Origin: Escherichia coli
GTDB taxonomy: Bacteria; Pseudomonadota; Gammaproteobacteria; Enterobacterales; Enterobacteriaceae
Assembly (NCBI RefSeq): GCF_011045215.1
Contig: NZ_CP049201.1
Direction: 5' to 3' (one strand)
Length of the DNA stretch: 64,000 nucleotides
How positions within the stretch are numbered: the first letter of the stretch is position 1; each line of letters begins with the position of its first letter. Shown here one piece after another: positions 11,076 through 53,198 of the stretch. The position numbers and the translations under genes were made by a program. Below the pieces are notes generated by a model, which saw nothing but the letters and a program-made list of their open reading frames with translations, did not search any database and was not told the DNA's origin.

Positions 11076-11084
11076 TGCCGTAAT

Positions 11085-12130: not shown

Positions 12131-12194
12131 CACCACCGTTCCGGATACAAAAAAAATCGCGAGACCTTGCCAGCCTCGCGAACGTTCATTTCAG

Positions 12195-12620: not shown

Positions 12621-12634
12621 AAATCACCACAAAA

Positions 12635-12964: not shown

Positions 12965-12974
12965 ACGATCCCCT

Positions 12975-15165: not shown

Positions 15166-15188
15166 TTCTCACTATTCCCCACTTTTTC

Positions 15189-15367
15189 GCCTCACTTTTT
15201 AAGCTCCCAACATGATTTCCAACCTTGTTTTTTTGTGATTCTAATATGTTGTTTTTCAATGTGTTTTTTATTCCTCACTTTTGAGCCTATATACAGGTTG
15301 AAAAGTGAGGGGCGCGGTTGCTTTTTGTTCAGTTTCTGCTATCCCCTCACTTTTGTGCCTCACTTTT
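15189..15367. repeat. Iteron cluster (putative island replication origin)
   Basis: CCTCACTTTT at 15189, 15273, 15345, 15358 plus inverted copy AAAAGTGAGG at 15301, directly 3' of helicase-primase gene. Confidence 0.55.
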
Positions 15368-16782
15368 TACAGTGGGCGCACATCATCACCGTCAATAGTG
15401 ATAACGCCGTCTCTTTCCAGCTTGTACAGCCAGCGCCGAAAGTTTTTCATCTCATACCCCAGCTTTTTCATATCATCACGCAATAACGGGATAGTGCATT
15501 TATCGCCGCGCTGTGTGCGTGAACGGATACAGCCCCATAGCGCGGCGTGATTCTCCGTCTTGTTTCCGGCCTCCTCAATGCGCTCCAGTTCAACAGGTGG
15601 GCGCGGCTTATCCACTACCACCAGCGACGTGATTAACTCCTTGTCAGCGTCGATAAAAAGCTCCACCACGCGTAAATCGTATGCGGCCTCTTTCAGTTCC
15701 TCTGCGTCCTTCATTTTGGTGCAGGAGATAACCAGGGCTTCACTGTCTGCACCTTCCCGGCGAATACGGTATTCAGCGTCCAGAGATGCACGAAATGCAC
15801 TGGAACCACGCGCCCCCTTTGTTTCATCCTTGCCGGAATGGTGAACCACCAGTACCGTGGCCCCTGTGCGTCGTTTCAGTTCGTCACATCCACGGATAAA
15901 CGCCCCCATATCCCGCGCGTCATTTTCATCATTACCGCCAAAACACCGCGCCAGCGTATCCAGAATAATCATGCGTACCGGTTTACCCGTTTCCCTTTCA
16001 ACCTGGCGGGAAGCGATGACCATTTCATCAATATCAAACTGTGCTGCCGGAAAAATCGGGCGGTTTACCAGGTACAGATTTTTCACCCGTTCATCATTAA
16101 CGATTTCCCATGCTTTGATACGACGAGGGACACCAATGCCACCTTCACCGACGACATACATCACCGAACCATGCGCCACCCTGCGGCCTCCCCAGTGGCG
16201 ACCCGTGGCAACATGACACGCCCAGGAACACGCGAGGAATGATTTATAGGAACCGCTCGCGCCGTATGTGCTGCACAACGAATTAGCCGGAATCACGCCC
16301 TTAACGACATAATCAAGCTGTGTGTCGTACCCTGCAGATCCAATACTCATTGGTAGCGTGGTTTTTCGCTGGTCGTTTTTTTCTTCCTCCGGTATCTCTC
16401 CGGACCGTCTTTTCTGGCGCTCTCGTTCCAGATATTCGCGCCACCCCTCCCGCTTCTGGCTGTGCATTCCCTCAGGGTAATAATTCGCATCCCGTACACC
16501 TGCCGCTGCCAGCTTTTGCCCGATGGCATTAATATTTGACGGCTTGATGTGGCCTGCCTTGTACAGCCGGACACAATAGCGACCATCGTCGATAATTTTC
16601 AGGTCAGCCAGTTCGTCAAGATGGCTGTCTCCAAGCCATACAGGCGGAACATTGTCGCCAGCAAGTCGCCCGTCCTGCTCCTGCCATTGTTTCGCGTGCG
16701 CCCAGGCATCACTACCCGCAAAAATAATGACTTCGGTCATTTTGTCGTGCGGCTGTTTTTTTAAGTTCGGTGCCAGTTTCAT
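15367..16782 (-). CDS. Replication protein, RepA-like helicase/primase (AAA_25-type P-loop NTPase)
   Basis: 471 aa; Walker A GASGSYKS, Walker B RMIILDTLARCF, ...VLVVHHSGKDE...; N-terminal extra domain. Confidence 0.7.
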   Translation of the reverse strand: MKLAPNLKKQPHDKMTEVIIFAGSDAWAHAKQWQEQDGRLAGDNVPPVWLGDSHLDELADLKIIDDGRYCVRLYKAGHIKPSNINAIGQKLAAAGVRDANYYPEGMHSQKREGWREYLERERQKRRSGEIPEEEKNDQRKTTLPMSIGSAGYDTQLDYVVKGVIPANSLCSTYGASGSYKSFLACSWACHVATGRHWGGRRVAHGSVMYVVGEGGIGVPRRIKAWEIVNDERVKNLYLVNRPIFPAAQFDIDEMVIASRQVERETGKPVRMIILDTLARCFGGNDENDARDMGAFIRGCDELKRRTGATVLVVHHSGKDETKGARGSSAFRASLDAEYRIRREGADSEALVISCTKMKDAEELKEAAYDLRVVELFIDADKELITSLVVVDKPRPPVELERIEEAGNKTENHAALWGCIRSRTQRGDKCTIPLLRDDMKKLGYEMKNFRRWLYKLERDGVITIDGDDVRPL

Positions 16783-17078
16783 TTTTTACCCCTGAATGCG
16801 TTAATCATGTTTTTCATTTTCTGAATGTTCGCCCGTGCCTTTGCGTTGCTGGTGGGCTGTTTGCATGGCGTGGCCTGTATCAGTGAAAAATCACGCCGGA
16901 ACTGATAAACAGGCATCACGCAGTCATAGCCGTACCCATCACGGCGGTAAGTAACGCACCGTCCCGCCACGCTTTTAATCGTTACCGTGCCGCCGTAGTT
17001 ATCCCGGAAAATATCGCCGGGGCGGATTTCAGGCCGAGCGGGGCCGCTGGCAGTAAAGCCAGAAATTTTCTGTTTCAT
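16779..17078 (-). CDS. Hypothetical protein
   Basis: 99 aa ORF, start overlaps helicase-primase gene. Confidence 0.4.
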   Translation of the reverse strand: MKQKISGFTASGPARPEIRPGDIFRDNYGGTVTIKSVAGRCVTYRRDGYGYDCVMPVYQFRRDFSLIQATPCKQPTSNAKARANIQKMKNMINAFRGKK

Positions 17079-17094
17079 GGTTTTTATTCCTCTG

Positions 17095-17294
17095 CGCGGG
17101 TCTTGTTGTGTATTTCCATAACCGCGTTTAATTCATCAATAACCGGGGTTAACAGAGTGCTGAAAGCAGAAAATAAATCCCCCCCCCTGTTCGGCATGAA
17201 CTTCGGTTAATTTAATTAATACCGCTTTCATTTCCAGTGCCCGGTTTAATGCATTCTCAGAATGAATAAGAACATCGAAAGGGATTTTATCCAT
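17095..17294 (-). pseudogene. Small ORF interrupted at G9 homopolymer (frameshift or phase-variable)
   Basis: ATG at 17294 reads MDKIPFDVLIHSENALNRALEMKAVLIKLTEVHAEQGGG then poor frame; with G8 it continues ...DLFSAFSTLLTPVIDELNAVMEIHNKTRAEE to a stop 5 nt before next gene. Confidence 0.35.
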
Positions 17295-17753
17295 GGCTTA
17301 CATCCTCCGGGAATTTTCTTCTGTAACGCGCCTCTGCAACATATTCCGCATAGTCCGACGCAATATTGAGAATCTCCACACCCTCTGACCTGTAGCCACT
17401 GGTACTGATAAGAAAAAATGCGGCTTTCATCATGTCGGCAACGCATAACAACGCATCGCCTGTATGTTCCGGTGCGCCATCAAATTCCTGTTTCAGGGCA
17501 TTAAAACGATCATCACGCATAACCCCCCCCCATTTTCACAATCAGTAATCAGGATGGCTTTAGCCTCATTCAGTGCCATATCAGCACTAAATTGCATAAC
17601 AGCCAGTGAGTGAGGAACGAAATCCCCGGCATATTCTGTTTCGCTGGTGGCGTGCTTATGTGCCCTGTCCGCGATAACAGAAATATCAATCAGCGCGTGC
17701 ATCAGCGTTTTGATGGCTTCGGCGGCTGCGTCCTGACGGGTGTTATTGCACAT
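17287..17753 (-). pseudogene. Gene split by G9 homopolymer (86-aa + 77-aa ORFs; fuse with G10)
   Basis: ORF 17493-17753 ends ...CENGGGLCVMIVLMP; one extra G in the tract at 17523-17531 gives ...GGGVMRDDRFNALKQEF... continuous with ORF 17287-17520. Confidence 0.4.
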
Positions 17754-17949
17754 GGCGCACCTCCTGACGAATACGGGCGGCGAATACCATCACGCAGCCA
17801 TCAGGAGATTGCTGACGCGCTTCCTGTTCGTTGGTGGCCTCAATGGTAATCACGCGCGGTTGTGCCGTGCTCAGGGCGATAAAACGCCAGATGTATTTAT
17901 TCAGGTTGTGCGAGTCCCGCCCTTGCGGGTGTGTGGTATGATTTAACAT
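17743..17949 (-). CDS. Small protein, first gene of leftward island operon (Cro-like position)
   Basis: 68 codons (MLNHTTHPQGRD...RHVQ) with RBS GAGGT; divergent from RHH gene across operator region; not in ORF track as a separate ORF. Confidence 0.4.
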   Translation of the reverse strand: MLNHTTHPQGRDSHNLNKYIWRFIALSTAQPRVITIEATNEQEARQQSPDGCVMVFAARIRQEVRHVQ

Positions 17950-18088
17950 AGCTACCTCGATAATCTTGCTATCGTTGGTGGTTAGACGCCCTGCATGTGT
18001 ACCACCACTGCGGGGCGTTGCGTTTTTTGATGTGCACGTGTTAAGGTGTACACCTAACGAACCAAAACATAACGCCATAGGTGTACAC
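17950..18088. promoter_or_regulatory. Divergent promoter/operator region of island
   Basis: Perfect palindrome GGTGTACACC at 18045-18054 and GGTGTACAC at 18080-18088 just before the RHH start; CACGTG at 18033. Confidence 0.5.
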
Positions 18089-18283
18089 ATGTCAACAGTT
18101 ATTAAGCGCGATAAAAAACAAAAAGGCACAGGAAAGGCCCCACCATTCCATATGCGTATAGTCCCTGAATTGAAGGAGCAGTTTGATAACGAAGCCAGTA
18201 ACGATGGAGTAAGTCTTGCCAACTGGCTTAAAGAGTTAGGGCGCAAAGAACTGCTACGGCGCGGAATTGAACCAAAGGGATAA
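18089..18283 (+). CDS. Ribbon-helix-helix-like DNA-binding protein (putative island repressor or antitoxin)
   Basis: 64 aa from MSTVIKRDKKQKG...; basic N-terminus, start right after operator palindromes. Confidence 0.45.
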   Translation: MSTVIKRDKKQKGTGKAPPFHMRIVPELKEQFDNEASNDGVSLANWLKELGRKELLRRGIEPKG

Positions 18284-18292
18284 CTATCACTA

Positions 18293-18823
18293 ATGTCGCA
18301 ACCAGAGGAGTTGCGACTCCGAAGATTACATAGGAAATTAATGATTATGGGATTCGTCATTTTCATTGCGATCGTAATTTTATCCATTTACGTTCTTACC
18401 AAATTATTTATTTCAGAAAATTCACACGACAAAATTAGAGCCGAGGCATCCAGAAGAATTGCACAAGAAGAGGCCGAACGGGCTAAGTTGTATGAAGAGA
18501 GAAAGGAATCATCTGATAATCCTGTTAATAAACAAAAACGAATAACAACACACGAAGATCATTTTTATATGGATATTCATGGTGGTCACAAATATATATG
18601 TGTTGATGCTAAGTTAGTTTTTGAATATGCAAATTTAAAACACAACTATTTTCTTCACGCCTCTCACTATTTCCCTGAGTTAGAGTATGTTTATGGAAAA
18701 AACGAACATGGGAAAATAGTTAGAGTAGATTTGTACGATAAAAAAATTCAAGCTATTAACCCCGATACTGGCGAAAAAATACCTGGTGTGAGACGTTATC
18801 TACGACAGCACAAGATAAAATAG
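18293..18823 (+). CDS. Hypothetical membrane-anchored protein (AT-rich cargo gene)
   Basis: 176 aa; N-terminal TM helix MIMGFVIFIAIVILSIYVLTKLF; markedly AT-rich; followed by hairpin+T-run terminators. Confidence 0.45.
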   Translation: MSQPEELRLRRLHRKLMIMGFVIFIAIVILSIYVLTKLFISENSHDKIRAEASRRIAQEEAERAKLYEERKESSDNPVNKQKRITTHEDHFYMDIHGGHKYICVDAKLVFEYANLKHNYFLHASHYFPELEYVYGKNEHGKIVRVDLYDKKIQAINPDTGEKIPGVRRYLRQHKIK

Positions 18824-19238
18824 CCCACCGGAATTTTTTTCCGGTTACGCTTTGCCCACCAGCCGCAAATGTGGCATTGTTGGCTATGCTCATGCGTTGG
18901 GGATAACGCGCAATTAGTGTTGAAGGGCCACCGTAGCGGGTGGCCTTTGTTTTGCCTGTTATCCGGCAATTGTGGCGCTTCGCCACACGGTTGATATAAT
19001 CCTCCTGCACAGATTCATTTTTTGCGCAGCAGGTTAATTGTTCGCAAGGGCGCTCCGGCAACTGGGCGCTTTTTGTTTTTACCCACCAGCACAATAAAAA
19101 TCTTCATTTTCCATTTTTGCAAAATTTCATGCTTTCCGGACGACTGGCCATATGTCATTTTTTAGCAGAAGATTTTGCCTTGCTGGTGGGTAGCTTCCCG
19201 GTTAACACGATGTACCGTATAATCAGCACCGCACGCGG

Positions 19239-19820
19239 TTACTGAATACGCTCACCAAAGTAAAACTCAGGCTGATATTCACGTATCAGCCTTTTTTCTT
19301 CTTCCTCCAGCTCACGCTTTTTGCGCTTACATGCCTGTAGTTCCCTCCCCTTCTCGCTGGCACTTATCTGGTATTGCTCTTTGCGACGGGAAAAATCCTG
19401 TAATGCGCCCCACGGGATACCATAAGCCCCCGTTTTTCTGATACCCGGTATCACATTTCTGAATACCCAGTTACTGAAACGATGGGCGAACGTGCCAGGA
19501 GTAGCAGCTTTTCGACTTCTGGCAATCAGCTTGTAAAAACCAGATTCAGAAACGACGCTATGATTTGGATTTCCGCGAATACCGTAAGTTAAAGTTACGG
19601 TATTACTTTCATCATCATCCAGAGCTTGCAACGCCATGCGTGAATTAGTCAGTTCCAGCGCAGCGCAGACATCCTTTGCAACAAACCACGGATCGCCGTT
19701 CAGATACACCACGCGAACGTTCACACTATCAAAGCGCAGAACGACCAGATCACGAATATCACAGAATTTTTTCACTGGACGTGCGTCACCCTTGCCAGTC
19801 ACGGCAATATTTTTATTCAT
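19239..19820 (-). CDS. Bro-N domain protein (putative antirepressor)
   Basis: 193 aa; N-terminal ...GDPWFVAKDVCAALEL... Bro-N-like; coiled-coil C-terminus. Confidence 0.55.
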   Translation of the reverse strand: MNKNIAVTGKGDARPVKKFCDIRDLVVLRFDSVNVRVVYLNGDPWFVAKDVCAALELTNSRMALQALDDDESNTVTLTYGIRGNPNHSVVSESGFYKLIARSRKAATPGTFAHRFSNWVFRNVIPGIRKTGAYGIPWGALQDFSRRKEQYQISASEKGRELQACKRKKRELEEEEKRLIREYQPEFYFGERIQ

Positions 19821-19870
19821 CGCTTTTTACCTCACATACAAAAAACCCCGCATTGCGCGGGGTATATCAA

Positions 19871-20080
19871 TCATTGACGATATTCATTAGCTTGTTTTCG
19901 TTGTCTTTCCAGCCACGATGCAACATCATCACGATGCCATGCGTTGCGTCGCCCAATCTTAAAGGGGCGTGGAAATTTATTTTTTTCATCATTCATGAAA
20001 GCGTAAAATGCACTCATTGCACCGTAGCGAAGCTCTGCCATCACGTCTTTGGTAAATAGAATATTGCCGTTAGTGCTCAT
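19871..20080 (-). CDS. AlpA-family transcriptional regulator/excisionase-like
   Basis: 69 aa, ...RRNAWHRDDVASWLE... typical AlpA/Xis HTH; immediately downstream of P4-type int. Confidence 0.75.
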   Translation of the reverse strand: MSTNGNILFTKDVMAELRYGAMSAFYAFMNDEKNKFPRPFKIGRRNAWHRDDVASWLERQRKQANEYRQ

Positions 20081-20086
20081 ATTGCC

Positions 20087-21319
20087 TCACATATTCACTA
20101 CTTTTAGCCCCTGATGACCACCAGAACGACGGATAATTCCCTTTCTGGCATCATCAACAAAATCACCAATCCATTGCATCATGATCTTACGTTGCTCAAA
20201 ATATTTTGAGCGATTATAAATATCACGAATAGCATCGCCGCTTTTATGGGCTAATGCTGCCTCAATAACATCTGGGTTAAACCCTTCTTCGTTGAGTAAC
20301 GTACTCCACATAGCCCGGAATCCGTGGGCAGTTGCAATACCATAAAATTGTCCATCTTTGAAACACTTATGACGCAACACGCTTGATATAGCTTTCCCCG
20401 GATTCTTTGGAGAAAAAAATATATAGCTACCACATTTTATTTTATTCATTTCATTTAAAATATCCACGGCTTGCCGTGAAAGCGGAACTACGTGTTCACG
20501 TCCACACTTCATTCTTTCAGGGGGAATTGTCCAGATACAATTTTCTAAATCAATTTCCTCCCATTTTGCCTCCCTTGCTTCACATGGTCGTACCATAGTG
20601 AAAATCTGGAACAAAAGAGAGCATCTTATAGAGATATTACTTGTAGTATCCCACCAGTTCAAAAATTCTGATAACAGTTCAACTGGTAATGCCTTTAATG
20701 GGGTATGTTTTTTTGTTGCAAATGCATTTCTTATTGTTGATAGCGGGTTATTTTTAATTACTCCAGAGTTAACACAGTAATTCATTATTTCATTAATTTT
20801 TGAAATAATTTTATCCAATACAGAATTACGATCAGAAAATTGATTAAGCAATGGTATGACCACAGGCGCGGTCATATCATGTATGTACACATTTCCAAAT
20901 ACAGGGATTATATGTCTGTTCAATAACTCTTCTATTGTCTGTAAAGTCGACAGTCGCAAATCACCTTTTTTCTTAAAATTAAACCATTCAATTGCAATAG
21001 CACCAAACGTCTGTAAGTGCTTTCTTTTAGCCTCGAGTCGTTTTTCTGCCCGGTATGATAACGGATCTATATCCCGTGCCAACAATCTGCGCAGATTATC
21101 GCGTTCTTCTCTGGCTTCAACCAGCGTGAAATCGGGGTATCGCCCTATAGTGTATGTTTGCCGCTTCTTCGTAAAAGGTTGTACATAACGAAAACGCCAC
21201 GATTTACTACCGGCTTTTGACACATAAAGCAAAAGCCCAAACCCATCATATAGAGCGTAATCTTTCTCTCGTGGCCTGGCGCTTTTTACCTCTGATGCAG
21301 TAAGAGGCTTCACCGACAT
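20087..21319 (-). CDS. Tyrosine integrase, P4/CP4-57 type
   Basis: N-terminus MSVKPLTASEVKSARPREKDYALYDGFGLLLYVSKAGSKSWRFRY typical of P4-like integrases; C-terminal catalytic domain ...AHGFRAMWSTLLNE... Confidence 0.9.
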   Translation of the reverse strand: MSVKPLTASEVKSARPREKDYALYDGFGLLLYVSKAGSKSWRFRYVQPFTKKRQTYTIGRYPDFTLVEAREERDNLRRLLARDIDPLSYRAEKRLEAKRKHLQTFGAIAIEWFNFKKKGDLRLSTLQTIEELLNRHIIPVFGNVYIHDMTAPVVIPLLNQFSDRNSVLDKIISKINEIMNYCVNSGVIKNNPLSTIRNAFATKKHTPLKALPVELLSEFLNWWDTTSNISIRCSLLFQIFTMVRPCEAREAKWEEIDLENCIWTIPPERMKCGREHVVPLSRQAVDILNEMNKIKCGSYIFFSPKNPGKAISSVLRHKCFKDGQFYGIATAHGFRAMWSTLLNEEGFNPDVIEAALAHKSGDAIRDIYNRSKYFEQRKIMMQWIGDFVDDARKGIIRRSGGHQGLKVVNM

Positions 21320-21433
21320 ACAAGCACTCCAATACAAATTTTTTCTAGTCCATGCGCTGGTTCCTTTTGCCAGAATACTGGCGATAAAAAAGCGAAAAAC
21401 AAGGAACAATGCACACAATGAAAAAACCGCAAC

Positions 21434-28162: not shown

Positions 28163-30115
28163 TTATCCTCCACTCAGTGCAGCCGCGATCTCTTCCATGC
28201 TCATATCATCCTCATCCTGCTCATCTCTTCGTGCCCTCGCCAGCGCTTCAAGGTCCAGTTGCCACCGCTGTACCGAAACGCGCAGGGCGGCATAAGCATA
28301 TACCAGGCAGTCGAGGGCTTCGTTGCGTCGCCCTTTTTTATCCCACAGCAGTTTCACCCTGCCGTTAACCACCTTTTCCACCAGTTCTTCCGCTACGATT
28401 TGACGCGCCTCTTCTTCCGAAAAAATGTCCGGGTTATCCGGAAAACGGAAGGTATACGGGGCTGCTTCACTTGCAGAAACCACCGGCAGGGCAAAACGCG
28501 CATACAGCATTTCCTTGACGGTATCGGAGCCCACCTCACACAAAAACACACCACGCTGGTTGCGCTTTTTGGGCATGGTGATCACCGGCTTGCCATACAC
28601 CGATGCCCCTTTTATGGGAAGCACAAAAAAAGTGCCGTGTTTCCTGGAACGCTGATACACAATGTCCTGGTCGATACCACCGGTATCCCAGCAGACGCGG
28701 GAAATGGAAATTTCAGTACCGTCAGCATGGCGGTATTTTTTCCGGATCACCGCATCAACACGTTTAAGGGTGTCCTCGTCCTCCGGTCGCCCCATGATAA
28801 TTTGCTTGTCAATCAGAAAGGCTTCTTCGCCGGGAGCCCAGCCCCAGACATAAATTTCATAGCGATCTTTCTGGGAGTCGATCCCGGCAGTCAGGTAAAC
28901 CACCCGCAGGGGAACCTGCGCATCATAGTGGCAGACTTTTTCCAGCAACAACTCAAAGCTCAGTTTTTCTGCCACGGCCTCTTCATAGGGCTCCCCGAGC
29001 GTGGTGTTAATAAACGTCTTGACACCGTTCGGATCCTTCAGCGCATCCAGCCAGTCATAAACAATCTGTACCCAGGTGGTGAACGGACTGTACGCTGTCC
29101 ACACGTGGTACGTGATTGAGCGCGGTGGCGGCATCTCCTCATCACCGGCGCTGTAAAATGCCAGGCCGTCACGCGTCCACATCCCGGTATTGTCACAAAT
29201 CCAGCGCCCGTCGGTCTGGTCAAGCTCCGACTGCCGGATCACACAGCCATTATGTTCACACAGGTAATACACCGTTTCCGGTTTACCCTTCTCCCATTTC
29301 AGGCCAAAGGTTGTCGCATCATCGCCAAACTTAAGATACTGGGCTTCACCACAATGAGGGCATGGCACATAAAACCGCATAAAATGTGCAGATTCGTTCG
29401 CGGCTTTTTCAATCTGACAGGAACCTTTAATTTTTGGCGTTGAGCCGCGTATGGATTTAGGCCATACCGAACCTTCGATACGTTTATCGCCAAGCAGCGT
29501 TGGCGAGCCTTCCTTTTCCACATCCGGTTCAAACGAGGAGAGTTCGTCATAGCAGACCACATCCACTGATTTTTCACGGTAGTTTTTAGCAGCGGCACCC
29601 CCCAGGCACCAGAACCCCACGCCGGAGGAGAAACGCTTCAGGGTGAGTGTGTTGTCACGATGTTTTCTGCCCAGCCATGGCGATAACGCTTTAAGGCTGG
29701 GGACATCCCGGAGCGTTGCTTCCACATGCGCTTTCATAAAATCTTCAGCTGCGGAATCTGTCGGCTGGAAGAGCAGGCTGTTACGGGATTTATGCTCAAT
29801 AAAATACCCGACCACGCCCAGCAGCATTTTGGTGTAACCCACACGCGCCGATTTAATCAGATTAACAGTGCGGATCCTGTCGTGCCCCATGCTGTTCATA
29901 ATGGCGACCTGGAACGGCAGTGTTTTCCATTCCCCATCACCGTATGACGATTCTTTAGGCAGATAATAATTTTGATCAGCCCATTCAACTGCCGTCATCG
30001 GTACAACCCTGACCAGAGGCTGCAGCGCAACTGAAACAGCAGCCATCATATTATTCAGCTGTAGTTCGGATATATTCATCGAGTAACTCCGGCAATTTAT
30101 CCCCTGTCCGCGCAC
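28163..30115 (-). CDS. Terminase large subunit (lambda gpA-like)
   Basis: 650 aa; ATPase and nuclease domains, lambda-A length, overlaps terS end. Confidence 0.92.
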   Translation of the reverse strand: MRGQGINCRSYSMNISELQLNNMMAAVSVALQPLVRVVPMTAVEWADQNYYLPKESSYGDGEWKTLPFQVAIMNSMGHDRIRTVNLIKSARVGYTKMLLGVVGYFIEHKSRNSLLFQPTDSAAEDFMKAHVEATLRDVPSLKALSPWLGRKHRDNTLTLKRFSSGVGFWCLGGAAAKNYREKSVDVVCYDELSSFEPDVEKEGSPTLLGDKRIEGSVWPKSIRGSTPKIKGSCQIEKAANESAHFMRFYVPCPHCGEAQYLKFGDDATTFGLKWEKGKPETVYYLCEHNGCVIRQSELDQTDGRWICDNTGMWTRDGLAFYSAGDEEMPPPRSITYHVWTAYSPFTTWVQIVYDWLDALKDPNGVKTFINTTLGEPYEEAVAEKLSFELLLEKVCHYDAQVPLRVVYLTAGIDSQKDRYEIYVWGWAPGEEAFLIDKQIIMGRPEDEDTLKRVDAVIRKKYRHADGTEISISRVCWDTGGIDQDIVYQRSRKHGTFFVLPIKGASVYGKPVITMPKKRNQRGVFLCEVGSDTVKEMLYARFALPVVSASEAAPYTFRFPDNPDIFSEEEARQIVAEELVEKVVNGRVKLLWDKKGRRNEALDCLVYAYAALRVSVQRWQLDLEALARARRDEQDEDDMSMEEIAAALSGG

Positions 30116-30560
30116 ACTGATTCGCGCCTTTTGCGATAAGGGTTTTCAGATAATCGATATGACGCGGGGTTAAATCCGGGAACTGTCGCTGCATGGATAA
30201 AGGAATGGAATCAAGCGTACTGGACAATGCCATCGCCAGTTTGCTGAGAGCGAAAACGCAGAACCCAGAATCAATGAGCTTGCCTTCGGTTACCTGATTT
30301 TTTAATTGCTGTGCTATTGCCTGTTCTTCAGTCAATTTCCATCTGGCGATAAGTAATTTTTCTTCGTAATCGCTATTTCCATCGTCATCAGTATCGCTTC
30401 TTCCTTTGCGTTTAAGGTATGAAATATAAAAATATCGCCAGGCATCAATATCGTATTCACCACGCTTTCGATTTTTTGGCGCTCCCGGGTGCTTCTGAAG
30501 ATCCCGCAACCAGCGTTCAGTTATACCAAGATGCTCGGCTACCTCCGCCTGCGTTGCCAT
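30051..30560 (-). CDS. Terminase small subunit (Nu1-like C-terminal half, divergent N-terminal HTH)
   Basis: 169 aa; C-terminal ...GKLIDSGFCVFALSKL...LSMQRQFPDLTPRHIDYL... similar to island TerS and lambda Nu1. Confidence 0.8.
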   Translation of the reverse strand: MATQAEVAEHLGITERWLRDLQKHPGAPKNRKRGEYDIDAWRYFYISYLKRKGRSDTDDDGNSDYEEKLLIARWKLTEEQAIAQQLKNQVTEGKLIDSGFCVFALSKLAMALSSTLDSIPLSMQRQFPDLTPRHIDYLKTLIAKGANQCARTGDKLPELLDEYIRTTAE

Positions 30561-32222: not shown

Positions 32223-32789
32223 TTACAAACCAACGCGCGCTTTCATCCAGCCATAGACAAACGACTCATTGGCCTCGCGTTTCTCTGCCAGCTCCAGATA
32301 ACGCTCGCCCTGCGTACAGTTCAGGGCTTTCACCAGTACCAGTTCACCATCCCTGCTGCGATTTTTCAGATATGCCCGTAACGCATTAAGAGTACGCGGT
32401 CCGATGCGTCCATCTGCATCCATATCCGGATAGAGTTTCCCGCGCAGGTTAAAAACATTCAGCCAGCGCTGAAGCATTCTGGACGCCACGGCTGGTCCCA
32501 TGTTCACGCCCGTGTCGCACAACTCTGCGGCAATATCCGGAGACAGATTCTCAACCTGGTCGAATCGTGGTCCGTACCAGTAGTCCGCCTCGAGTATTTC
32601 CAGCGCCTGCCCACGCGTCAGGTCACGCATATCGCCCTGATAACCGTGTGCACGGGCAACTTTTTCAGTGATGCCCCATTTAGTCGGACCACCTTTATCA
32701 TCCGGGTGATTGACGTAACCGCCCTCTTTTCCCAGAATTTCGTCAAAAATTTCATCTTTCGACTTCATATCAGCGCCTTCGTAATACAA
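32223..32789 (-). CDS. Endolysin (GH108-like muramidase with peptidoglycan-binding domain)
   Basis: 188 aa; ...EGGYVNHPDDKGGPTKWGIT... typical GH108 N-terminus; follows holin-like genes. Confidence 0.75.
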   Translation of the reverse strand: MYYEGADMKSKDEIFDEILGKEGGYVNHPDDKGGPTKWGITEKVARAHGYQGDMRDLTRGQALEILEADYWYGPRFDQVENLSPDIAAELCDTGVNMGPAVASRMLQRWLNVFNLRGKLYPDMDADGRIGPRTLNALRAYLKNRSRDGELVLVKALNCTQGERYLELAEKREANESFVYGWMKARVGL

Positions 32790-33060
32790 GGATTTTTGAT
32801 ACGTTCCCGCGTGCTCGTATCACCAGCACGCAGAACACCAGGTTAATCAGGACGACCAGCCAGTTACCGGGTGGAAAGCGACCACACAGATAACAAAGCG
32901 GCGCAAAGGCATAAAGCAGCATCAGCAGCCAGGCCAGCCACGACATCAGCGGTTTATGTCTCGACTCACCACGACGATAAAAAAAGAGCGTCAGCACGAT
33001 AACCGTGCTTAACACCACATTCAGTAATCCGGGAAGGTTACTTAACATTACCGCCTCCAC
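32770..33060 (-). CDS. Holin/antiholin-like membrane protein
   Basis: 96 aa with 2-3 predicted TM helices, immediately upstream of endolysin. Confidence 0.5.
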   Translation of the reverse strand: MEAVMLSNLPGLLNVVLSTVIVLTLFFYRRGESRHKPLMSWLAWLLMLLYAFAPLCYLCGRFPPGNWLVVLINLVFCVLVIRARGNVSKILVLRRR

Positions 33061-33427
33061 CCCGCAGACGGGAGAACAGCCCGGATACCAGCGATGCGAT
33101 ATCCTGCTGGTGGATGAATGAGAGAATCTTCACTGACACCACCGATACCAGTACCGCACAAAGCGCGTCGAGAGATGTGCTGTGGAGATTCAGTTTTTCA
33201 ACCAGGTAAGACGCCATCACATCCGCCCCCAGCACGCCAACAATGAACGACACCAGAAAATGCGCTGCCACACGCCAGACAGAAATCTTCTGTGGTATCG
33301 TGGCCACAAACAGCGCCCCTGCGAATGCACCAAACACAATCCCGAAATCCGTTCCGGTAAACAGCCCGAATACCGTCGCCCCGCCGAGCGCCGCAGCCGT
33401 GCCGGAACCGGATAAGGGTTCAGACAT
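33038..33427 (-). CDS. Putative holin
   Basis: About 130 aa from MSEPLSGSG...; Gly/Ala-rich TM helices; ORF track start 33640 probably over-extended. Confidence 0.5.
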   Translation of the reverse strand: MSEPLSGSGTAAALGGATVFGLFTGTDFGIVFGAFAGALFVATIPQKISVWRVAAHFLVSFIVGVLGADVMASYLVEKLNLHSTSLDALCAVLVSVVSVKILSFIHQQDIASLVSGLFSRLRGGGGNVK

Positions 33428-33896
33428 ACTTTTTCTCCTGTAAATAAAAAAGGGCCGCTGTCGGCCCGTAAAAAAACACCCCGTCAAAGGCACCCGCAGA
33501 TGCCTTTTGTGTGGTGTTATCTGGTGTTTTCTGATGTGGTGTGTGCAGGACACAGATGTGAAAAAGGTCCGCCGGTACGAACCCTGTGTATGGATAAAAA
33601 AATGCCCGTCATGAGACGGGCTAACGCATTCATCATGCAAGAGTTAAGCAGGATTACCTGTATCGAATTATCGGTATCAGAATGAGTCGTCAACCTGCAA
33701 CGCAATTCTGACGAATCGTAGACCCCGGTTCAGGCGACGACTCATTCTGATAACGCATACCATTAACAATGTAAAAAACACAGCACTGAAACTGTAACCG
33801 GCCAGGCATTACAGAATGAAGAAAATAAAGTGTCCGCAACCAGATTCTTCACGAAAATTCGTCAGTGCTGATAAAGCTATGACTCATCAGTTTTAC

Positions 33897-33972
33897 TGGA
33901 GAACGGTGGCGGGAATCGAACCCACATCATCAGCCTGGAAAGCTGAGGTAATAGCCATTATACGATACCCGC
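33897..33972 (-). tRNA. tRNA-Gly(UCC)-like sequence, acceptor stem imperfect (possible pseudo-tRNA)
   Basis: Minus strand GCGGGTATCGTATAATGGCTATTACCTCAGCTTTCCAGGCTGATGATGTGGGTTCGATTCCCGCCACCGTTCTCCA: D-, anticodon- and T-arms like E. coli glyT, but 3' acceptor strand CACCGTTC does not pair with 5' GCGGGTA. Confidence 0.5.
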
Positions 33973-34190: not shown

Positions 34191-35237
34191 TTAAAAATCT
34201 TTCGTTATTTCTCTGACCGTCTGATTAAAACGTTCCTCTTCCAGTTCCACGCCAATCGCCCTGCGTCCCAGCAACAGTGCCGCTTTTATCGTGGAACCTG
34301 ACCCCATAAAAAAATCTGCGACCAAATCGCCTGGACGGCTGCTGGCAGTAATTATCTGACGCAACATATCCGCCGGTTTTTCACAGGGATGTTTGCCCGG
34401 ATAATACTGCACGGGCTTGTGCGTCCAGACATCCGTATAAGGAACGACAGCCGATACGGAAAAATAACGCCGCAGTGATTTGTATTCCTCCAGCAGGCTG
34501 ACATATTGCCGGTTCAGTTCGCTGTATGTGCTGACCAGCTGGTGATGTGGCTGCTCCAGTTCACCGCGCTGGTGTTTTTCTGCCGCCACACGTGCAAACA
34601 GCGCCTGCAGTTTACTGTAATCGGCCTCATTCGGTAACTGCCACTGACTGGTACCAAACCAGTGCGAAACCATGTTTTTCTTTCCGGTGGCTTCAGCTAT
34701 CTGTTTTGACGTTATCCCCAGTGATTCACGCGCATCACGGAAGTAAGAAATCAGCGGGGCCATCACGTGCTGTTTAAGCTCGCGCCCCTTTGCCGCATAG
34801 CCGTCATTTTTTGGCTGGTATGGCCCCTGATAATGTTCAGCAAACAGAATGCGCTCTGTTGCCGGGAAATACGCCCGCAGGCTTTCCTTGTTGCACCCGT
34901 TCCAGCGTCCGGACGGCTTCGCCCAGATAATGTGGTTCAGCACATTAAAGCGCTCACGCATCATGATTTCGGTGTCAGATGCCAGGCGATGACCACAGAA
35001 CAGGTAAAGACTTCCGGCAGGCTTCAGTACCCGCCAGAACTGCGCCAGACATCGGTCCAGCCATTGCAGGTAATCATCGTCGCCCTTCCACTGGTTATCC
35101 CAGCCCTCGGGCTTCACTTTAAAGTATGGCGGGTCTGTGACTATCAGATCGACAGAGTTTTCCGGTAATGTCCGGATAAATTCCAGGCAATCCGCGTTGA
35201 TTAACTCACAACTGGATATTTTTACAGTATTAGCCAT
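34191..35237 (-). CDS. DNA methyltransferase (DPPY motif; N6-adenine or N4-cytosine), orphan
   Basis: 348 aa; IVTDPPYF near N-terminus and FMGSGST near C-terminus; no adjacent restriction endonuclease gene. Confidence 0.85.
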   Translation of the reverse strand: MANTVKISSCELINADCLEFIRTLPENSVDLIVTDPPYFKVKPEGWDNQWKGDDDYLQWLDRCLAQFWRVLKPAGSLYLFCGHRLASDTEIMMRERFNVLNHIIWAKPSGRWNGCNKESLRAYFPATERILFAEHYQGPYQPKNDGYAAKGRELKQHVMAPLISYFRDARESLGITSKQIAEATGKKNMVSHWFGTSQWQLPNEADYSKLQALFARVAAEKHQRGELEQPHHQLVSTYSELNRQYVSLLEEYKSLRRYFSVSAVVPYTDVWTHKPVQYYPGKHPCEKPADMLRQIITASSRPGDLVADFFMGSGSTIKAALLLGRRAIGVELEEERFNQTVREITKDF

Positions 35238-35387
35238 AGATCAATAAGCACTTCTCTGATAGGCTCATACCGCTTTTGCGCAAAGCAGATGGGCCTGAGG
35301 TTTGCTTGTGACCCCAACGCATGAGCAGATGGCTGGCAGGTGCCGCTAACACCCACCAGCCGCCCATTACCACAAATTAAAAAGCCT

Positions 35388-35585
35388 TCACTGCGAAAGG
35401 CGTCTGTAACAACCGAACTGATAATCTGCCAGACCCGCCATAACAAGCTGGGTCAGTATTAACTGGCAGCGTTCGCGTGAAAGGTAAGTATTCTGCGCAA
35501 TTTCCCCGACGGTCGCCGGTTCGGTGACGCTTAATTCATTAAACACCACTCTGGCGGTTTTGGTCATATCCTGCTGTTTTAGCAT
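35388..35585 (-). CDS. Hypothetical small protein
   Basis: About 65 aa from MLKQQDMTKTARVV...; ORF track 139-aa version likely over-extended. Confidence 0.3.
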   Translation of the reverse strand: MLKQQDMTKTARVVFNELSVTEPATVGEIAQNTYLSRERCQLILTQLVMAGLADYQFGCYRRLSQ

Positions 35586-35902
35586 GTCTTTTTCCCTATT
35601 CCGGTTAACGTGACATACCAATAACTCTTGTCTGAAAAGCCAGCAAGCTGAAAAACCGGTATTCGTAACCACCAGCGCGTTTAACGTACTGCACCACTTT
35701 TCGGGCACAAAAAACCCGCCTAACGGCGAGCTTAAGCTGTGTAGCGAAGTAACCACTCTTAACACACTAAGCGAAAAAATGCGGACCGCGTTAGTGATTT
35801 TTAGCAAGTTTTGCTTTATTTTTCCTACGTACAGTAAAAATAAGAAATCAATTCCAGCCAGGCTGGCTGAGTTAACACAGGTCTTAGAATGAGGGAACTT
35901 CT

Positions 35903-36913
35903 TTGTACGAAATACATTACGACGTTGAGTCTGAACAGCAAGCTTTTGAATTACTTGAACGTTACCTAAACGGACAAGCTTTACCCGAAAAAATTAGTTT
36001 CAATGGTTGGCCAAGTCTAACCATCAGGTTGACTGGTGAAAAATTCAACAAATCACTCACACCTTCAGTTATGAAAGGATTTGTTGAAATGCAATCGCAA
36101 CTCAATAAGTCTTATGCGCTAGCAAAGTTCGGAACTCCTGATGTCCGCAGGCTAACAAAAGAAGAACTTGATGCTTTAGAAATTGAAGTTACAGTAGAGC
36201 AAGGTTCATCTCTTGTAGAGATTAACATTGATGGCTTCCTAAGCAAGCTTACGCACGAACTGGTAGGGAAAATGAACGCCACAGAGATTGTATTTACGGT
36301 TCTCGGTGCTGCCGTTATATGGGGCGGTGTAACCGTCTTCAAACGCTATCTGGATAACCGTAAAGATACTCGGTTGGCTGAAATTGCTAAAGAAGGCGAC
36401 AAAGAACACCTACGCGCAATGCAAGTGATGACACAGGAGGAAACAAAACGCCTCCAAATCATCTCAGAAATGGTGGCTAAAAAACCTCTACTCGACAATA
36501 TGGATCGAATGTCTTATGACGCTAAAACCACCATGGTTAAATCTTTCGTGCGTTCAGATTCAGCAGAAATTGACGGTGTCACAATAGATTCAGAAACGGC
36601 AAAAGAGCTAGTAACAAATGCTCGTCGACGCTCAGTTGAAATGAGAATAGACGGTATATACCGTATCGAAGAAGTGAATAATACCGACCCCGAAAGCTTC
36701 AAAGTTAAGGTTCGAAAGGTCGATTCTGATCAACGTTTGACCTGCGTTGTTCAGGATATATTCCTTGATGAATCAGGGAACAAAGAAGCCTTACAGCGAG
36801 CTGAATGGGAAAGAAAGCCTGTGCATTTAAGCATCAATGCCAAACACATTGATGGAGATATCAAGTCCGCCGTAATTTTACATGTGAAAGATGTTGAAGA
36901 TAAGCCCGAGTAA
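35903..36913 (+). CDS. Hypothetical protein, reverse-oriented AT-rich moron downstream of Q
   Basis: 336 aa, opposite strand to all flanking late genes, one central hydrophobic segment (IVFTVLGAAVIWGGVTVF), low GC; no family recognised. Confidence 0.5.
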   Translation: MYEIHYDVESEQQAFELLERYLNGQALPEKISFNGWPSLTIRLTGEKFNKSLTPSVMKGFVEMQSQLNKSYALAKFGTPDVRRLTKEELDALEIEVTVEQGSSLVEINIDGFLSKLTHELVGKMNATEIVFTVLGAAVIWGGVTVFKRYLDNRKDTRLAEIAKEGDKEHLRAMQVMTQEETKRLQIISEMVAKKPLLDNMDRMSYDAKTTMVKSFVRSDSAEIDGVTIDSETAKELVTNARRRSVEMRIDGIYRIEEVNNTDPESFKVKVRKVDSDQRLTCVVQDIFLDESGNKEALQRAEWERKPVHLSINAKHIDGDIKSAVILHVKDVEDKPE

Positions 36914-36928: not shown

Positions 36929-37318
36929 TCAAGATTCCACTTCGGCATCCATTTCTAAACTTACATCCAACATACTCAGGCAACCGTCGATAAACCCTTC
37001 AGCCATCTGTATCTCTATACGTATCAATTTCTCATCCTTCCAACGCGCCTTTGCAATCTTGCGCTTGGATATCCTGTATAAATAATGTGCCACAAGAAGC
37101 GAATGCTCATAAGGCCTTTTTTGCTTTAAACAAGCAAGACAACCTTCAATAATTAATGCGTCACTATCTGAACAAGCCAGGCGTTTCTTACTGGTATAGG
37201 GCAGAAGTCCCTTAAACCCGGCAGCTATAGGTGAATAGTCCACACCCGAGCTATCACTAGCCGCCCATGCCCCCCAACGCTCAAGAACCATCTGAATATC
37301 ACGCGCCATCGTTACCAC
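36929..37318 (-). CDS. Antitermination protein Q-like
   Basis: 129 aa immediately upstream of late/lysis region and downstream of RusA, Cys-containing; lambdoid Q position. Confidence 0.6.
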   Translation of the reverse strand: MVTMARDIQMVLERWGAWAASDSSGVDYSPIAAGFKGLLPYTSKKRLACSDSDALIIEGCLACLKQKRPYEHSLLVAHYLYRISKRKIAKARWKDEKLIRIEIQMAEGFIDGCLSMLDVSLEMDAEVES

Positions 37319-37670
37319 CTGTAATTTCGTAAATCTTCACACCCAGCCGACCACCAGGTACGCGCTGACCGCGCACAATATTAATTTCATCAAACTGCTC
37401 GTCGTCGATAAGCAACCCCGCATGTGTCAGTGCATCCAGTGGTGCTTTCAGAATATTGTCCAGGTCACGACGGCGCTTATCCGGTGGCTCTGCAGTAATT
37501 TTTATTGCCAGCCTTCCGGACAGATTTAATTTCAGCCGCTGCTGGCGAACAATGAGCGCCACATCACGGCGATAACGCTCACCGGCTTTTGATACAAAAT
37601 ATGTGCTGCCACGACGTCGCCAGTAGGTGTTTACCGTCGGCGGGTAAGGCAAAACAAACTCTATACGCAT
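37299..37670 (-). CDS. rusA: Holliday junction resolvase RusA
   Basis: 123 aa; MRIEFVLPYPPTVNTYW...DLDNILKAPLDALTHAGLLIDD typical RusA. Confidence 0.85.
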   Translation of the reverse strand: MRIEFVLPYPPTVNTYWRRRGSTYFVSKAGERYRRDVALIVRQQRLKLNLSGRLAIKITAEPPDKRRRDLDNILKAPLDALTHAGLLIDDEQFDEINIVRGQRVPGGRLGVKIYEITGGNDGA

Positions 37671-37682: not shown

Positions 37683-38732
37683 TTACCCGAGCACGCCGGT
37701 TGCAAAGGCGTGATCAAGAAAACGAAAAATTAAATCAACCTGGGAACCATGCTTTTCTTCGAACGCCAGCGGATCCGCATGAAGTTCGTTGTGATGTTCC
37801 CGGCATAACGGTAGCGTGAAAATATCGTGGGATTTTGTTCCCATTCCGCCCTGACCATGACCAATCAGGTGATGGGGATCGTCGGCTGGCTTACCACAGC
37901 ACGCACACGGCTGTGTCTTTACCCAGCGTGTATATTTCTCATTTATCCAACGGCGACGTTTAGGTCGCTTCATGAAAGATTCCGGAGACTCCGGATCTAC
38001 GGCAATGCTGACCACCGTCTTTTCCTGTGGTGCGTTCTGTTGCTGGTGGGCGTGAGGTGGTAGCGCAATATTTTTTGTGCGCTGCTTCAGTATGCTGGTA
38101 GCTGTCTGCTCTCCCGGTACGATGTCGCTTTCGCGGTATACTGAGTGGATTTTTTCACCCGGAAGCTTCAGGATTCGACGCGCCATATTTTCGGTCATGG
38201 CATCCACTACATCATTTACAGCAGCCCAGCAGTACAGTTCAGCCAGCGATAATTCCCGCTCCTGTGTACCGCTTATTGCGTGACGTATGACGTCAATCAT
38301 CCAGGCTGTCAGATTTTGTTGAGCAAGCTGCCCGAGTGATTCGGAGGTCTGGTCACGCAGCTGGTTGTCGCAGTGCCAGCACAACACCATCGCGCCGGTG
38401 CCGTAACGATGTATGACGGTTTCACTGTGATGATAGTCACCATGAGGCCACTGGCAGGATTTGACATGACGCAACAGCCAGTCAGACAGTGCGCCAGCGC
38501 CGCCAGCAGCACGAATCACCCGCTCATCGCTGAAAAATGGCAGTAATGATTTATCTTCCGCCAGCGGCTGGCGAACAGCAGGAACAACTCCGAACGGCAG
38601 ACCGCGCATGCTTTTCGGTTCCGGTTCCACCAGCACTCGAGGGTTATGAAATACCTGCATGGATTCACGACCAGGCTTAAGGACCACCAGCCCGAGTTCC
38701 GGTACCGGAACAGGTCGAAGTAATACCCGCAC
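37683..38732 (-). CDS. DUF968-like phage protein with C-terminal Cys/His motif
   Basis: 349 aa; C-terminal ...TQPCACCGKPADDPHHLIGHG...CREHHNELH HNH/zinc-binding-like. Confidence 0.55.
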   Translation of the reverse strand: MRVLLRPVPVPELGLVVLKPGRESMQVFHNPRVLVEPEPKSMRGLPFGVVPAVRQPLAEDKSLLPFFSDERVIRAAGGAGALSDWLLRHVKSCQWPHGDYHHSETVIHRYGTGAMVLCWHCDNQLRDQTSESLGQLAQQNLTAWMIDVIRHAISGTQERELSLAELYCWAAVNDVVDAMTENMARRILKLPGEKIHSVYRESDIVPGEQTATSILKQRTKNIALPPHAHQQQNAPQEKTVVSIAVDPESPESFMKRPKRRRWINEKYTRWVKTQPCACCGKPADDPHHLIGHGQGGMGTKSHDIFTLPLCREHHNELHADPLAFEEKHGSQVDLIFRFLDHAFATGVLG

Positions 38733-39006: not shown

Positions 39007-39492
39007 TACTATCCTCGTAATGGTGCGACAGACGCCAGTTGTTCAGGCTGGCTTTAACTACAACATTATAATCTAGTCTTTCTTAATGCTGAAGTGACTG
39101 ACCGAATCCGCATGTGATTCTTTGGTGATCAGAATAACATCGGATGGCAATGGCATTACGATAAACTCACCATTCTCAAGAACTATTACTTCATAATTAC
39201 CTGGTATAGAAAGCGCAGCAATTAATTCCTTATCGTTCATAACCAAAATCCCGTGAACTTTAAACACCTCCCCTTAAGGGGACCATCCTTCTTCTCCCTG
39301 CGCGCCAATCAAGTAATGAGATTCTATTTCCCCCGTAATTAGCCTCAAGAACAACAAATCACAAAAACACAAAAAGCCTGTTTGATTAAAAATAATCGTA
39401 ACAAAAAACCCGCCGAAGCGGGTTAAGTGCGGGTGCGTTGAGGATGCCTGACACATCAGAGGTGGCGAGGGATTTCTCCCCCGCCAGGTCTC

Positions 39493-39648
39493 TTACTCCT
39501 CAGATTCGTAAGCTGTGAAGACAGCGACCTCCGTCTGGCCGGTTCGGATTCGTACCTCGCAGAGGTCTTTCCTCATTACCAGTGCCGTCACTATGACGGT
39601 TAAACAGATGACGATCAGGGCGATTAACATCGCCTTTTGCTGCTTCAT
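39493..39648 (-). CDS. hok: Hok/Gef family type I toxin
   Basis: MKQQKAMLIALIVICLTVIVTALVMRKDLCEVRIRTGQTEVAVFTAYESEE; upstream in-frame mok-like extension and hairpin-rich leader. Confidence 0.8.
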   Translation of the reverse strand: MKQQKAMLIALIVICLTVIVTALVMRKDLCEVRIRTGQTEVAVFTAYESEE

Positions 39649-40102
39649 AGCCTGCTTCTCCTTGCCTTTCGGCACGTAAGAGGCTAACCTACGTTTGTGT
39701 AGCATAGATTGGGCCTCAGATTAATGTTAAGCGTCTTGCCGGACGCGTAATGTTAACTGGGGCTTTTCTCTGTCTGCCTTACAGTGGCATGCCCGAGGCA
39801 GACAGCCTCAGGCACCCGCAACAATCTTACCGACACCGATAAGAAAACGCTATTTTTTATTGCCAGAACCTTCTGCCCAGGCTAATGTATCCGCGTCAGA
39901 ACGGCGCAATGCGCTCGCCTGAGATACGTTTACTTGTCATTGGTGGCAACAGATAACGGCAATTGTTGTTTCTGTTTGTTTCCTTCAAAAACCCCGGACC
40001 ATCAATCCGGGGTTTTTGTTTGTTATCCCCAGCGGCAAATCGAATACACCATCAGCGCCACCGCCATCGCAATTCCTGCCGTTGTGAATGCTTCAGGCCA
40101 GG

Positions 40103-52949: not shown

Positions 52950-53198
52950 ATGGCAAGACTTATTCTGCTCACTGAGTGGGCAAAAGAGGAATTCAGCGAT
53001 CCGGTCCCTACTCCGGGCACGTTAAGTAAATACGCTAAAGCCGGAATGATATTTCCTCTCCCCAAAAAAGTTGGAAGACACTGGCGAGTGGATCCACGAG
53101 CTCGCTTTGTCGGAATGGTAAACAAGCCGGAGGTGATCGCCACAGATCACCCTGCTTTGAAGAGGATACTGGAAGATGGCGCGCCCGCGAAAATATAA
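52950..53198 (+). CDS. Excisionase-like protein
   Basis: 82 aa directly upstream of and overlapping int. Confidence 0.6.
   Translation: MARLILLTEWAKEEFSDPVPTPGTLSKYAKAGMIFPLPKKVGRHWRVDPRARFVGMVNKPEVIATDHPALKRILEDGAPAKI

Follow-up and report, generated by a model that had tools for sequence, protein, structure and literature searches.

Organization of the locus

The stretch of DNA analysed here, a 64,000-nucleotide (nt) window from Escherichia coli (contig NZ_CP049201.1 of assembly GCF_011045215.1), carries a prophage with a DNA methyltransferase gene in its late region, and this gene and the RNA leader that precedes it are the subject of the present work. An initial annotation of the window had described a methyltransferase with a DPPY motif at 34191-35237, located between the antiterminator gene Q and the lysis genes and devoid of an adjacent restriction endonuclease gene. 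The open reading frame (ORF) has exactly these boundaries, and it does lie between Q (36929-37318) and the holin and endolysin genes (32223-33640), all of them on the minus strand. What the initial annotation missed is that the gene belongs to the M.EcoGII family, so that it is already known and poses no open question. The features on which the analysis centres are the following:

34191..35237, minus strand: methyltransferase gene of the M.EcoGII family, encoding a predicted beta-class N6-adenine methyltransferase (ORF, PF01555, PADLOC, identity to M.EcoGII)
35238..35367, minus strand: conserved leader RNA with a folded structure, immediately 5′ of the methyltransferase ATG (covariation, fold energy, spacer length)
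35321-35367, minus strand: leader domain 1, a hairpin (covariation-supported structure)
35238-35314, minus strand: leader domain 2 (covariation-supported structure)

A predicted beta-class methyltransferase closely related to M.EcoGII

The ORF starts with an ATG codon on the minus strand and encodes 348 amino acids (aa), with DPPY at residues 35-38 and FMGSG at residues 310-314. The order of its motifs, that is, catalytic DPPY followed by the target-recognition domain (TRD) and then by the FxGxG motif that binds S-adenosylmethionine (SAM), is the one that defines the beta class. The Pfam model N6_N4_Mtase (PF01555) matches residues 29-340 with 152.1 bits (cut-off 26.7; E=2.8e-44), which argues that this is not a chance ORF, and PADLOC recognizes the protein as MTase_II (PDLC03265, E=2.2e-154). 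Among the ORFs of at least 80 aa in the window, this is the sole one with a [DNS]PP[YFWH] motif, and no second amino-methyltransferase motif was found.

M.EcoGII is a 349-aa prophage enzyme from E. coli O104:H4 C227-11 (GenBank EGT69837.1; Murray et al. 2018, PMC5778455). It methylates adenine in any sequence context, reaching 86% of the deoxyadenosines of its expression plasmid in vivo and up to 99% in vitro, and this methylation blocks many restriction enzymes (PMC5778455). The protein encoded in the window is identical to M.EcoGII at 297 of 345 positions (86%), over the full length, TRD included, and without large gaps. Identity amounts to 95% in the N-terminal catalytic part and to 83% in the TRD (residues 160-237), where 13 of the 78 residues differ. 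It is also 88% identical to Anc291, a reconstructed ancestor that was among the variants tested, 73% identical to SUPREM/Anc284 and, at the protein level, 86% identical to the enzyme of phage 1720a-02, a phage already named as carrier of an enzyme very similar to M.EcoGII (PMC5778455). The sequences of M.EcoGII, Anc291 and SUPREM were machine-read from the supplement of PMC11551740 and contain reading errors (‘NHHIW’, ‘GRRRAIG’), so the identities to these three proteins are slight underestimates. The 90% cluster representatives retrieved did not include the exact M.EcoGII sequence; the closest of them is 92.5% identical to it. Both Anc291 and SUPREM/Anc284 methylate DNA and RNA, and RNA assays found no sequence motif for them (PMC11551740). 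With 88%, 73% and 86% identity to Anc291, SUPREM/Anc284 and M.EcoGII, respectively, the window enzyme falls inside the range of tested context-free enzymes. Taken together, its sequence identifies the ORF as an intact beta-class amino-methyltransferase and a close relative of M.EcoGII.

These identities bear on the alternative that the enzyme is a sequence-specific orphan methyltransferase, which would write one particular motif and might have a regulatory role. Close homologues do carry the name ‘site-specific DNA-methyltransferase’ in the NCBI database, and the 13 residues of the TRD that depart from M.EcoGII could be taken in the same sense. The name, however, is a generic annotation, and the protein shares 86-88% full-length identity with two non-specific enzymes and 73% with a third. 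Moreover, the NCBIfam equivalog models were not reached by the methyltransferase, the scores staying far under the cut-offs of the specific enzymes (PRK11524, YhdJ-type, 110.9 vs 292; PRK13699, 80.2 vs 244; CcrM, 72.3 vs 830). We consider a sequence-specific enzyme unlikely.

Solved structures of beta-class enzymes (M.RsrI, M.MboIIA, CcrM, PDB 8urk/9c3u) align with residues 8-114 and 281-340 (E=1e-14 to 1e-24), and no relative among solved structures was found for residues ~115-280, which comprise the linker and the TRD. The AlphaFold model of the protein, built on a shallow alignment of 23 sequences, predicts helices in residues 146-255 and linkers below 50; with a mean pLDDT score (predicted local distance difference test) of 64.4 it was too poor for a fold search. 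The AlphaFold model published for the family shows the TRD as a helical bundle that includes a helix-turn-helix and that a long linker connects to the core (PMC11551740). Across genera the family retains a mean column identity of 83% over 23 proteins, a pattern that clearly points to purifying selection.

A conserved structured RNA precedes the methyltransferase start codon

The 150-nt spacer that separates the methyltransferase from the small gene upstream is conserved as strongly as coding sequence, yet it accumulates single-base indels that would break a reading frame. Its length is kept at 147-154 nt in Escherichia, Klebsiella, Pantoea, Mixta, Citrobacter, Kluyvera, Buttiauxella, Mangrovibacter, Hafnia and Rosenbergiella, and at ~142 nt in Providencia and Proteus. 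In the window, the leader folds with a minimum free energy of -70.9 kcal/mol (z=-2.98), and none of 200 shuffled sequences was as stable.

Comparative data well support a conserved RNA structure. In a MAFFT alignment of 30 sequences, a structure of 43 pairs was found in which 91.5% of the cells are paired, compared with 32-41% when the 3′ partners were slid by 1-3 columns. Thirteen of the 43 pairs had changed on both sides, a number that none of 500 shuffles reached (shuffle mean 7.8). A second alignment, of 55 sequences, showed compensatory changes in 30 of the 43 pairs and in 173 cells, against 13-17 pairs and 26-50 cells in the slid controls, and again no shuffle out of 500 equalled it; this alignment was fitted to the covariance model and therefore leans towards the structure. 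Since G-U pairs outnumber A-C mismatches by 196 to 61, the strand with the sense of the mRNA is favoured, and pairing is likewise higher on the sense strand (90-91%) than on the antisense strand (84%).

The covariance model, which was built from the MAFFT alignment, matches the window once (35235-35391, 140.5 bits), and in 52 of 87 sources the element ends at the methyltransferase start codon. Its other matches were a weak partial one elsewhere in a locus and two weak ones upstream in Vibrio. With the same model the leader was not detected in Xenorhabdus or Photorhabdus, whose spacers are shorter (76-107 nt), except that one Photorhabdus locus has the first hairpin only (E=0.006). A search of Rfam 15 gave no match to the leader, either at E<=1 with 10 kb or at E<=10 with 700 nt. 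The leader is also present in 22 loci without the small gene, which indicates that it belongs to the methyltransferase gene and not to the gene pair.

Two other identities for the spacer were rejected. One was an upstream ORF of 47 aa (35230-35373) whose stop codon overlaps the ATG; single-base indels break its frame and the stop is not conserved. The other was a prophage anti-small RNA of the AgvB/AsxR class, members of which lie 3′ of moron genes and not at a site such as this one.

Within domain 2, the basal helix pairs 35303-35314 with 35238-35250, that is, with nt -1 to -13 before the AUG, and inspection by eye revealed no Shine-Dalgarno sequence at the usual distance from this codon. By hiding these 13 nt, the helix would limit how much is translated of an enzyme whose overproduction does harm. 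We tentatively propose that the leader could be a previously undescribed cis-regulatory RNA that gates translation of the methyltransferase, a possibility that we rate somewhat below even, and that it is perhaps opened by the product of the small gene, in a manner comparable to the com-mom system of phage Mu:

35388..35585, minus strand: small gene for a 65-aa protein, phrog_331 (E=8.4e-46), weakly winged-helix-like

In such a scheme the co-transcribed protein would open the stem over the enzyme start; what the leader does, and any tie between it and the 65-aa protein, is speculation. Regarding the protein itself, its matches to helix-turn-helix domains of the TrmB/MarR type are all sub-threshold, it contains two cysteines, and it is 78-97% identical in phiP27, 1720a-02, Pantoea and Klebsiella. 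The gene is the usual neighbour of the methyltransferase, being found upstream of it in 60 of 89 loci. In Xenorhabdus and Photorhabdus the protein has diverged much faster than the methyltransferase (38-50% vs 68% identity). A 139-aa version of the small ORF was rejected as an over-extension; PGAP annotates the 198-nt version that encodes 65 aa.

Absence of a partner nuclease

No restriction endonuclease adjoining the methyltransferase was found with Pfam, NCBIfam, PADLOC or a structure search, and the arrangement is not that of a Type II restriction-modification system. When all ORFs within 2.5 kb were clustered for 87 loci, drawn from many genera, the genes that recurred beside the methyltransferase were the small gene in 57 loci, antiterminators in 39 and 14, DUF968 genes in 36 and, further, endolysins, spanins, holins and RusA; no recurrent nuclease appeared among them. 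The initial annotation was therefore right about the lack of a nuclease, and the methyltransferase, judged by sequence analysis, is an orphan.

Two genes near Q could be seen as the other half of a restriction-modification system:

35903..36913, plus strand: 336-aa gene, phrog_6191, on the opposite strand, in a slot of variable content that separates Q from the late leader
37683-38732, minus strand: DUF968 protein with an HNH-like tail (sub-threshold HNH-like match; PHROG labelled ‘HNH endonuclease’)

The lack of a known function for the 336-aa ORF, the HNH-like match and label of the DUF968 protein, and the presence of a GIY-YIG nuclease in the same slot of phiP27 are the grounds for such a system. 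Nevertheless, the confident AlphaFold model of the 336-aa protein (pLDDT 85.6) has no nuclease fold: it gave no match in the PDB at E<=0.001, with weak similarity to an oligonucleotide-binding (OB) fold only. The ORF has no match in Pfam, NCBIfam or PADLOC, and its 82 homologues, from Enterobacterales, are all named ‘hypothetical’ and lack any Pfam domain. The DUF968 gene, for its part, is of the ydfU type and stands beside Q in the K-12 prophage Qin without any methyltransferase. The slot that separates Q from the late leader behaves as a hot spot where relatives carry unrelated cargo: NS-NP030 has a CPBP protease there (locus L003, 4958-5776) and phiP27 the GIY-YIG nuclease-family protein (locus L001, 7593-8822), and 1720a-02 and CEA224S have no gene in it. 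In addition, a non-specific methyltransferase would offer a Type II partner no cognate site. Hence, we regard a restriction-modification pair at this locus as extremely unlikely. The 336-aa gene may instead be a moron or a defence gene. It ends 15 nt from the stop codon of Q, and inspection of its model by eye showed a C-terminal barrel that is OB-like and, at about residues 127-146, a hydrophobic stretch.

Predicted late transcription of the methyltransferase

The region from Q to the stop codon of the small gene contains the elements from which the timing of expression can be predicted:

36929..37318, minus strand: antiterminator Q, presumed to activate late transcription across the methyltransferase (PF06530, E=4.5e-50; 76% identical to Q of 1720a-02)
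35586..35790, minus strand: late-operon leader with an intrinsic terminator, putative pR′-proximal region and tR′ (near-identical block in 1720a-02 and phiP27)
35712-35733, minus strand: terminator hairpin and U-tract in the late leader (centroid fold)
35384..35401, minus strand: terminator-like hairpin with a U-run, overlapping the small-gene stop codon (terminator scan)

About 200 nt upstream of the 65-aa gene are nearly identical in 1720a-02 and phiP27, and in 1720a-02 this block comes directly after Q. In its pattern the block corresponds to the promoter-proximal part of a lambdoid late transcript, with a putative tR′. Within 35586-35790 (minus strand), the sequence GTTAAGAGTGGTTACTTCGC(C/T)ACACAGCTTAA, with a single-base difference among three phages, is followed by the terminator hairpin. 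In lysogens, the block could yield a short terminated RNA, by analogy with the StxS RNA that is described for Sp5 (PMC7547250). The stem of the second hairpin, at 35384..35401, is kept by compensatory changes in Pantoea and Klebsiella. The sequence link between Q of the window and the structures of Q21 is weak.

Because the methyltransferase is the second gene of a Q-dependent late operon and lies behind a terminator, its product would be expected only after induction, the gene staying silent in the lysogen. This position fits the published observation that lysogens do not express M.EcoGI and M.EcoGII and that growth is slower upon their expression (PMC5778455). Our literature search found nothing specific on induction-dependent expression of the methyltransferase in Shiga toxin (Stx) phages.

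Distribution of the methyltransferase and conserved layout

Relatives of the methyltransferase are found in 1891 of the 5426 complete E. coli genomes, in up to 5 copies per genome and with a best DNA identity of 97.1%. They also occur in 37 phage records, including phiP27 (89.7%), 1720a-02 and many Stx2a, Stx2c and Stx2d phages (83-84%). The order of the late operon is likewise present in prophages of E. coli, Pantoea and Klebsiella. The finding of the methyltransferase is thus correct but ordinary: the family is characterized, very common and sold as a reagent, about one in three complete E. coli genomes has it, and the gene stands where members of the family usually do.

Several related prophages encode a second methyltransferase, of another family, in the early/nin region: an MT-A70 enzyme in Klebsiella (locus L008, 1941-2585), a C5 methylase in Pantoea (locus L006, 1-94) and a Dam-type enzyme in 1720a-02 (locus L002, 9526-10179).

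Proposed function and the evidence that weighs against it

We consider it probable that the gene encodes a functional, context-free methyltransferase of the M.EcoGII family that is made late, in a Q-dependent manner, and serves to evade restriction. In this scheme, the helical TRD would impose no sequence context on SAM-dependent N6-adenine methylation; after induction, Q-modified polymerase would pass the terminators, so that the enzyme would be made shortly before lysis; it would then methylate adenines on all DNA in the cell, namely replicating phage, island and host chromosome; and the packaged DNA would enter the next host already protected against Type I, II and III restriction enzymes sensitive to adenine methylation. 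The non-specificity, the late timing and the anti-restriction benefit would follow from the published biochemistry of the family. The present analysis itself provides the sequence family, the intact motifs, the gene order, the absence of a partner nuclease and the conserved leader RNA.

Overcoming host restriction is also the published view of the role of M.EcoGII-like enzymes (PMC5778455). The initial annotation had suggested either an anti-restriction or an epigenetic function; the first agrees with this view, whereas an epigenetic role in the lysogen does not go well with a family that is silent in lysogens and with a gene placed behind a terminator. It had further proposed that the lack of a lysogen-specific methylation motif would count against its reading. 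This test is unsuitable and would wrongly refute it, because enzymes of this family are not made before induction and recognize no motif. Methylome surveys of lysogens would be blind to this enzyme, and a comparison of the lysogen with the cured strain would give a false negative.

A different main role, namely host takeover or RNA modification late in infection, has been considered. The enzyme might then methylate adenines of host DNA or RNA globally, so that transcription and replication of the host are disturbed, or it might mark the RNA of the phage. M.EcoGII methylates RNA and DNA:RNA hybrids in vitro, besides DNA; its expression slows growth, and plasmid DNA hypermethylated by it establishes poorly. 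Its RNA activity is weak compared to that on DNA, however, the RNA methylation activity of the ancestral Anc284 being 12-fold that of M.EcoGII (PMC11551740), and a gene located immediately before the lysis genes would leave little time for a takeover. We regard such a role as very unlikely.

Some observations weigh against a functional anti-restriction enzyme. About 14% of the residues differ from M.EcoGII, including the 13 of 78 in the TRD, and few substitutions can shift specificity; the AlphaFold model, with its pLDDT of 64.4, did not confirm the fold of this domain. The late promoter was not located, since a scan with the sigma-70 consensus found none between Q and the methyltransferase; by eye there was no convincing pair of hexamers in 35760-35810, and we name no position for pR′. 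The literature search retrieved neither a report of hypermethylated virion DNA for such phages nor one of an effect of gene loss on plating on restricting hosts. In E. coli, a plasmid heavily modified by M.EcoGII transforms less well, by 4-5 orders of magnitude (PMC5778455), and for this reason full methylation could be detrimental to the phage, and the level reached in nature may be low. Methyladenine-dependent Type IV enzymes cut M.EcoGII-modified DNA in vitro. Finally, an island of ~11 kb lies within the morphogenesis genes, so the prophage may be defective and the gene perhaps never expressed here.

The last point leads to the possibility that the methyltransferase is an inert passenger, with its sequence intact but never expressed, in a defective prophage. 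The island interrupts the morphogenesis region, the tRNA sequence downstream is degenerate, and the exact late region occurs in no complete E. coli genome of the collection, the best of which covers 71% of it. Conversely, no damage is seen in the ORF and its leader RNA, in Q and the small gene, or in the genes for the holins and the endolysin, and the purifying selection across genera noted above also speaks against a passenger. We judge an inert passenger improbable, and keep a functional M.EcoGII-family enzyme as the preferred reading.

The prophage, its island and the neighbouring genes

One end of the prophage is a lambda-type integrase gene (53176-54306) next to ompW, and the chromosomal flank is 99.0% identical to that of E. 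coli O157:H7 and O55:H7. The initial annotation had mentioned an island, and there is indeed an element of ~11 kb that encodes an integrase and a primase-helicase of its own, together with a major capsid protein, a head decoration protein and a small terminase:

~10400-21430, minus strand: satellite-like island, ~11 kb, inside the prophage between neck and baseplate genes (gene content)
20087-21418: island P4-type integrase (gene content)
15367-16782: island primase-helicase (gene content)
12975-14030: island second major capsid protein (gene content)
11311-11895: island small terminase (gene content)

An anti-repressor, a repressor, a gene resembling that of single-stranded DNA-binding proteins and a protease-like gene are encoded in the island as well. 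We take it to resemble the capsid-forming phage-inducible islands. A context-free methyltransferase acting in trans would be expected to methylate island DNA too, which is a reasonable inference.

The remaining genes around the methyltransferase are as follows:

37299-37670, minus strand: RusA (position in the late-region gene order)
33902..33972, minus strand: degenerate tRNA-Gly(UCC)-like sequence (Rfam tRNA, 36.4 bits vs gathering score 29)
32223..33640, minus strand: lysis cassette of two holins and an endolysin (Pfam)
33038-33640, minus strand: holin (PF16931)
32770-33060, minus strand: holin (PF05449)
32223-32789, minus strand: GH108 endolysin (PF05838 and PF09374)
28163-30560, minus strand: small and large terminase (gene order)

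The tRNA-Gly-like sequence has mismatches in its acceptor stem, and ARAGORN found no tRNA in the window; an intact copy of tRNA-Gly(UCC) is present in E. coli strain CEA224S. The degenerate sequence stands where Stx phages have ileZ and argO. Farther upstream of Q, a hok/sok toxin-antitoxin locus was recognized at 39403-39817 (minus strand), with sok at 39643-39817 (109 bits) and, at 39493-39705, an ORF that is Hok-like. Next to it, 39403-39484 is an isrK-like sequence that scored 30.5 bits, below the gathering score of 50.

Comparison with known systems

With the solved beta-class enzymes, the likeness of the window methyltransferase is confined to the catalytic Rossmann core. M.EcoGII is much closer: both proteins have nearly the same length (349 vs 348 aa) and the beta-class order of motifs, both are prophage-borne and neither has a partner endonuclease, the difference being ~14% of the residues. 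Relatives of M.EcoGII, such as that of 1720a-02, occupy the same position between Q and the lysis genes.

The resemblance extends to the layout of whole late regions. In phiP27, where the methyltransferase is L24, in 1720a-02 and in the phages converting to Stx2a, Stx2c or Stx2d, the gene is 84-90% identical to the window copy at the DNA level, and the order is the same: Q, the 65-aa gene, the 150-nt spacer, the methyltransferase and then tRNA genes. These phages differ in that stx genes and intact tRNAs (ileZ, argO) lie between the methyltransferase and the holins. The window, unlike them, has the degenerate tRNA-Gly only and no toxin genes.

The leader RNA seems to be the only new part of the locus, and in the literature reached we found no description of how phages control a harmful context-free methyltransferase. 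The leader and the small gene upstream offer a concrete, testable handle on this control, and regulated leaders could help to express M.EcoGII-type enzymes, which are hard to clone. A parallel is offered by the com-mom operon of phage Mu. There, the stem covering the start of a toxic enzyme that is made late and modifies adenine is opened by a small protein encoded upstream. A review pairs Mom with M.EcoGII. The two systems would be alike in their working only: in each, a small gene lies immediately upstream, and the beginning of the enzyme gene is covered by a stem in the RNA. Mom does not belong to the methyltransferases, and its sequence is unrelated to the window enzyme; Com has a zinc finger, whereas the protein of 65 aa, with only two cysteines, looks winged-helix-like; and, unlike the com-mom pairing, the leader of the M.EcoGII-type gene occurs without the small gene in the 22 loci mentioned above. 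For the leader and the 65-aa gene, the parallel with com-mom is attractive but unproven.

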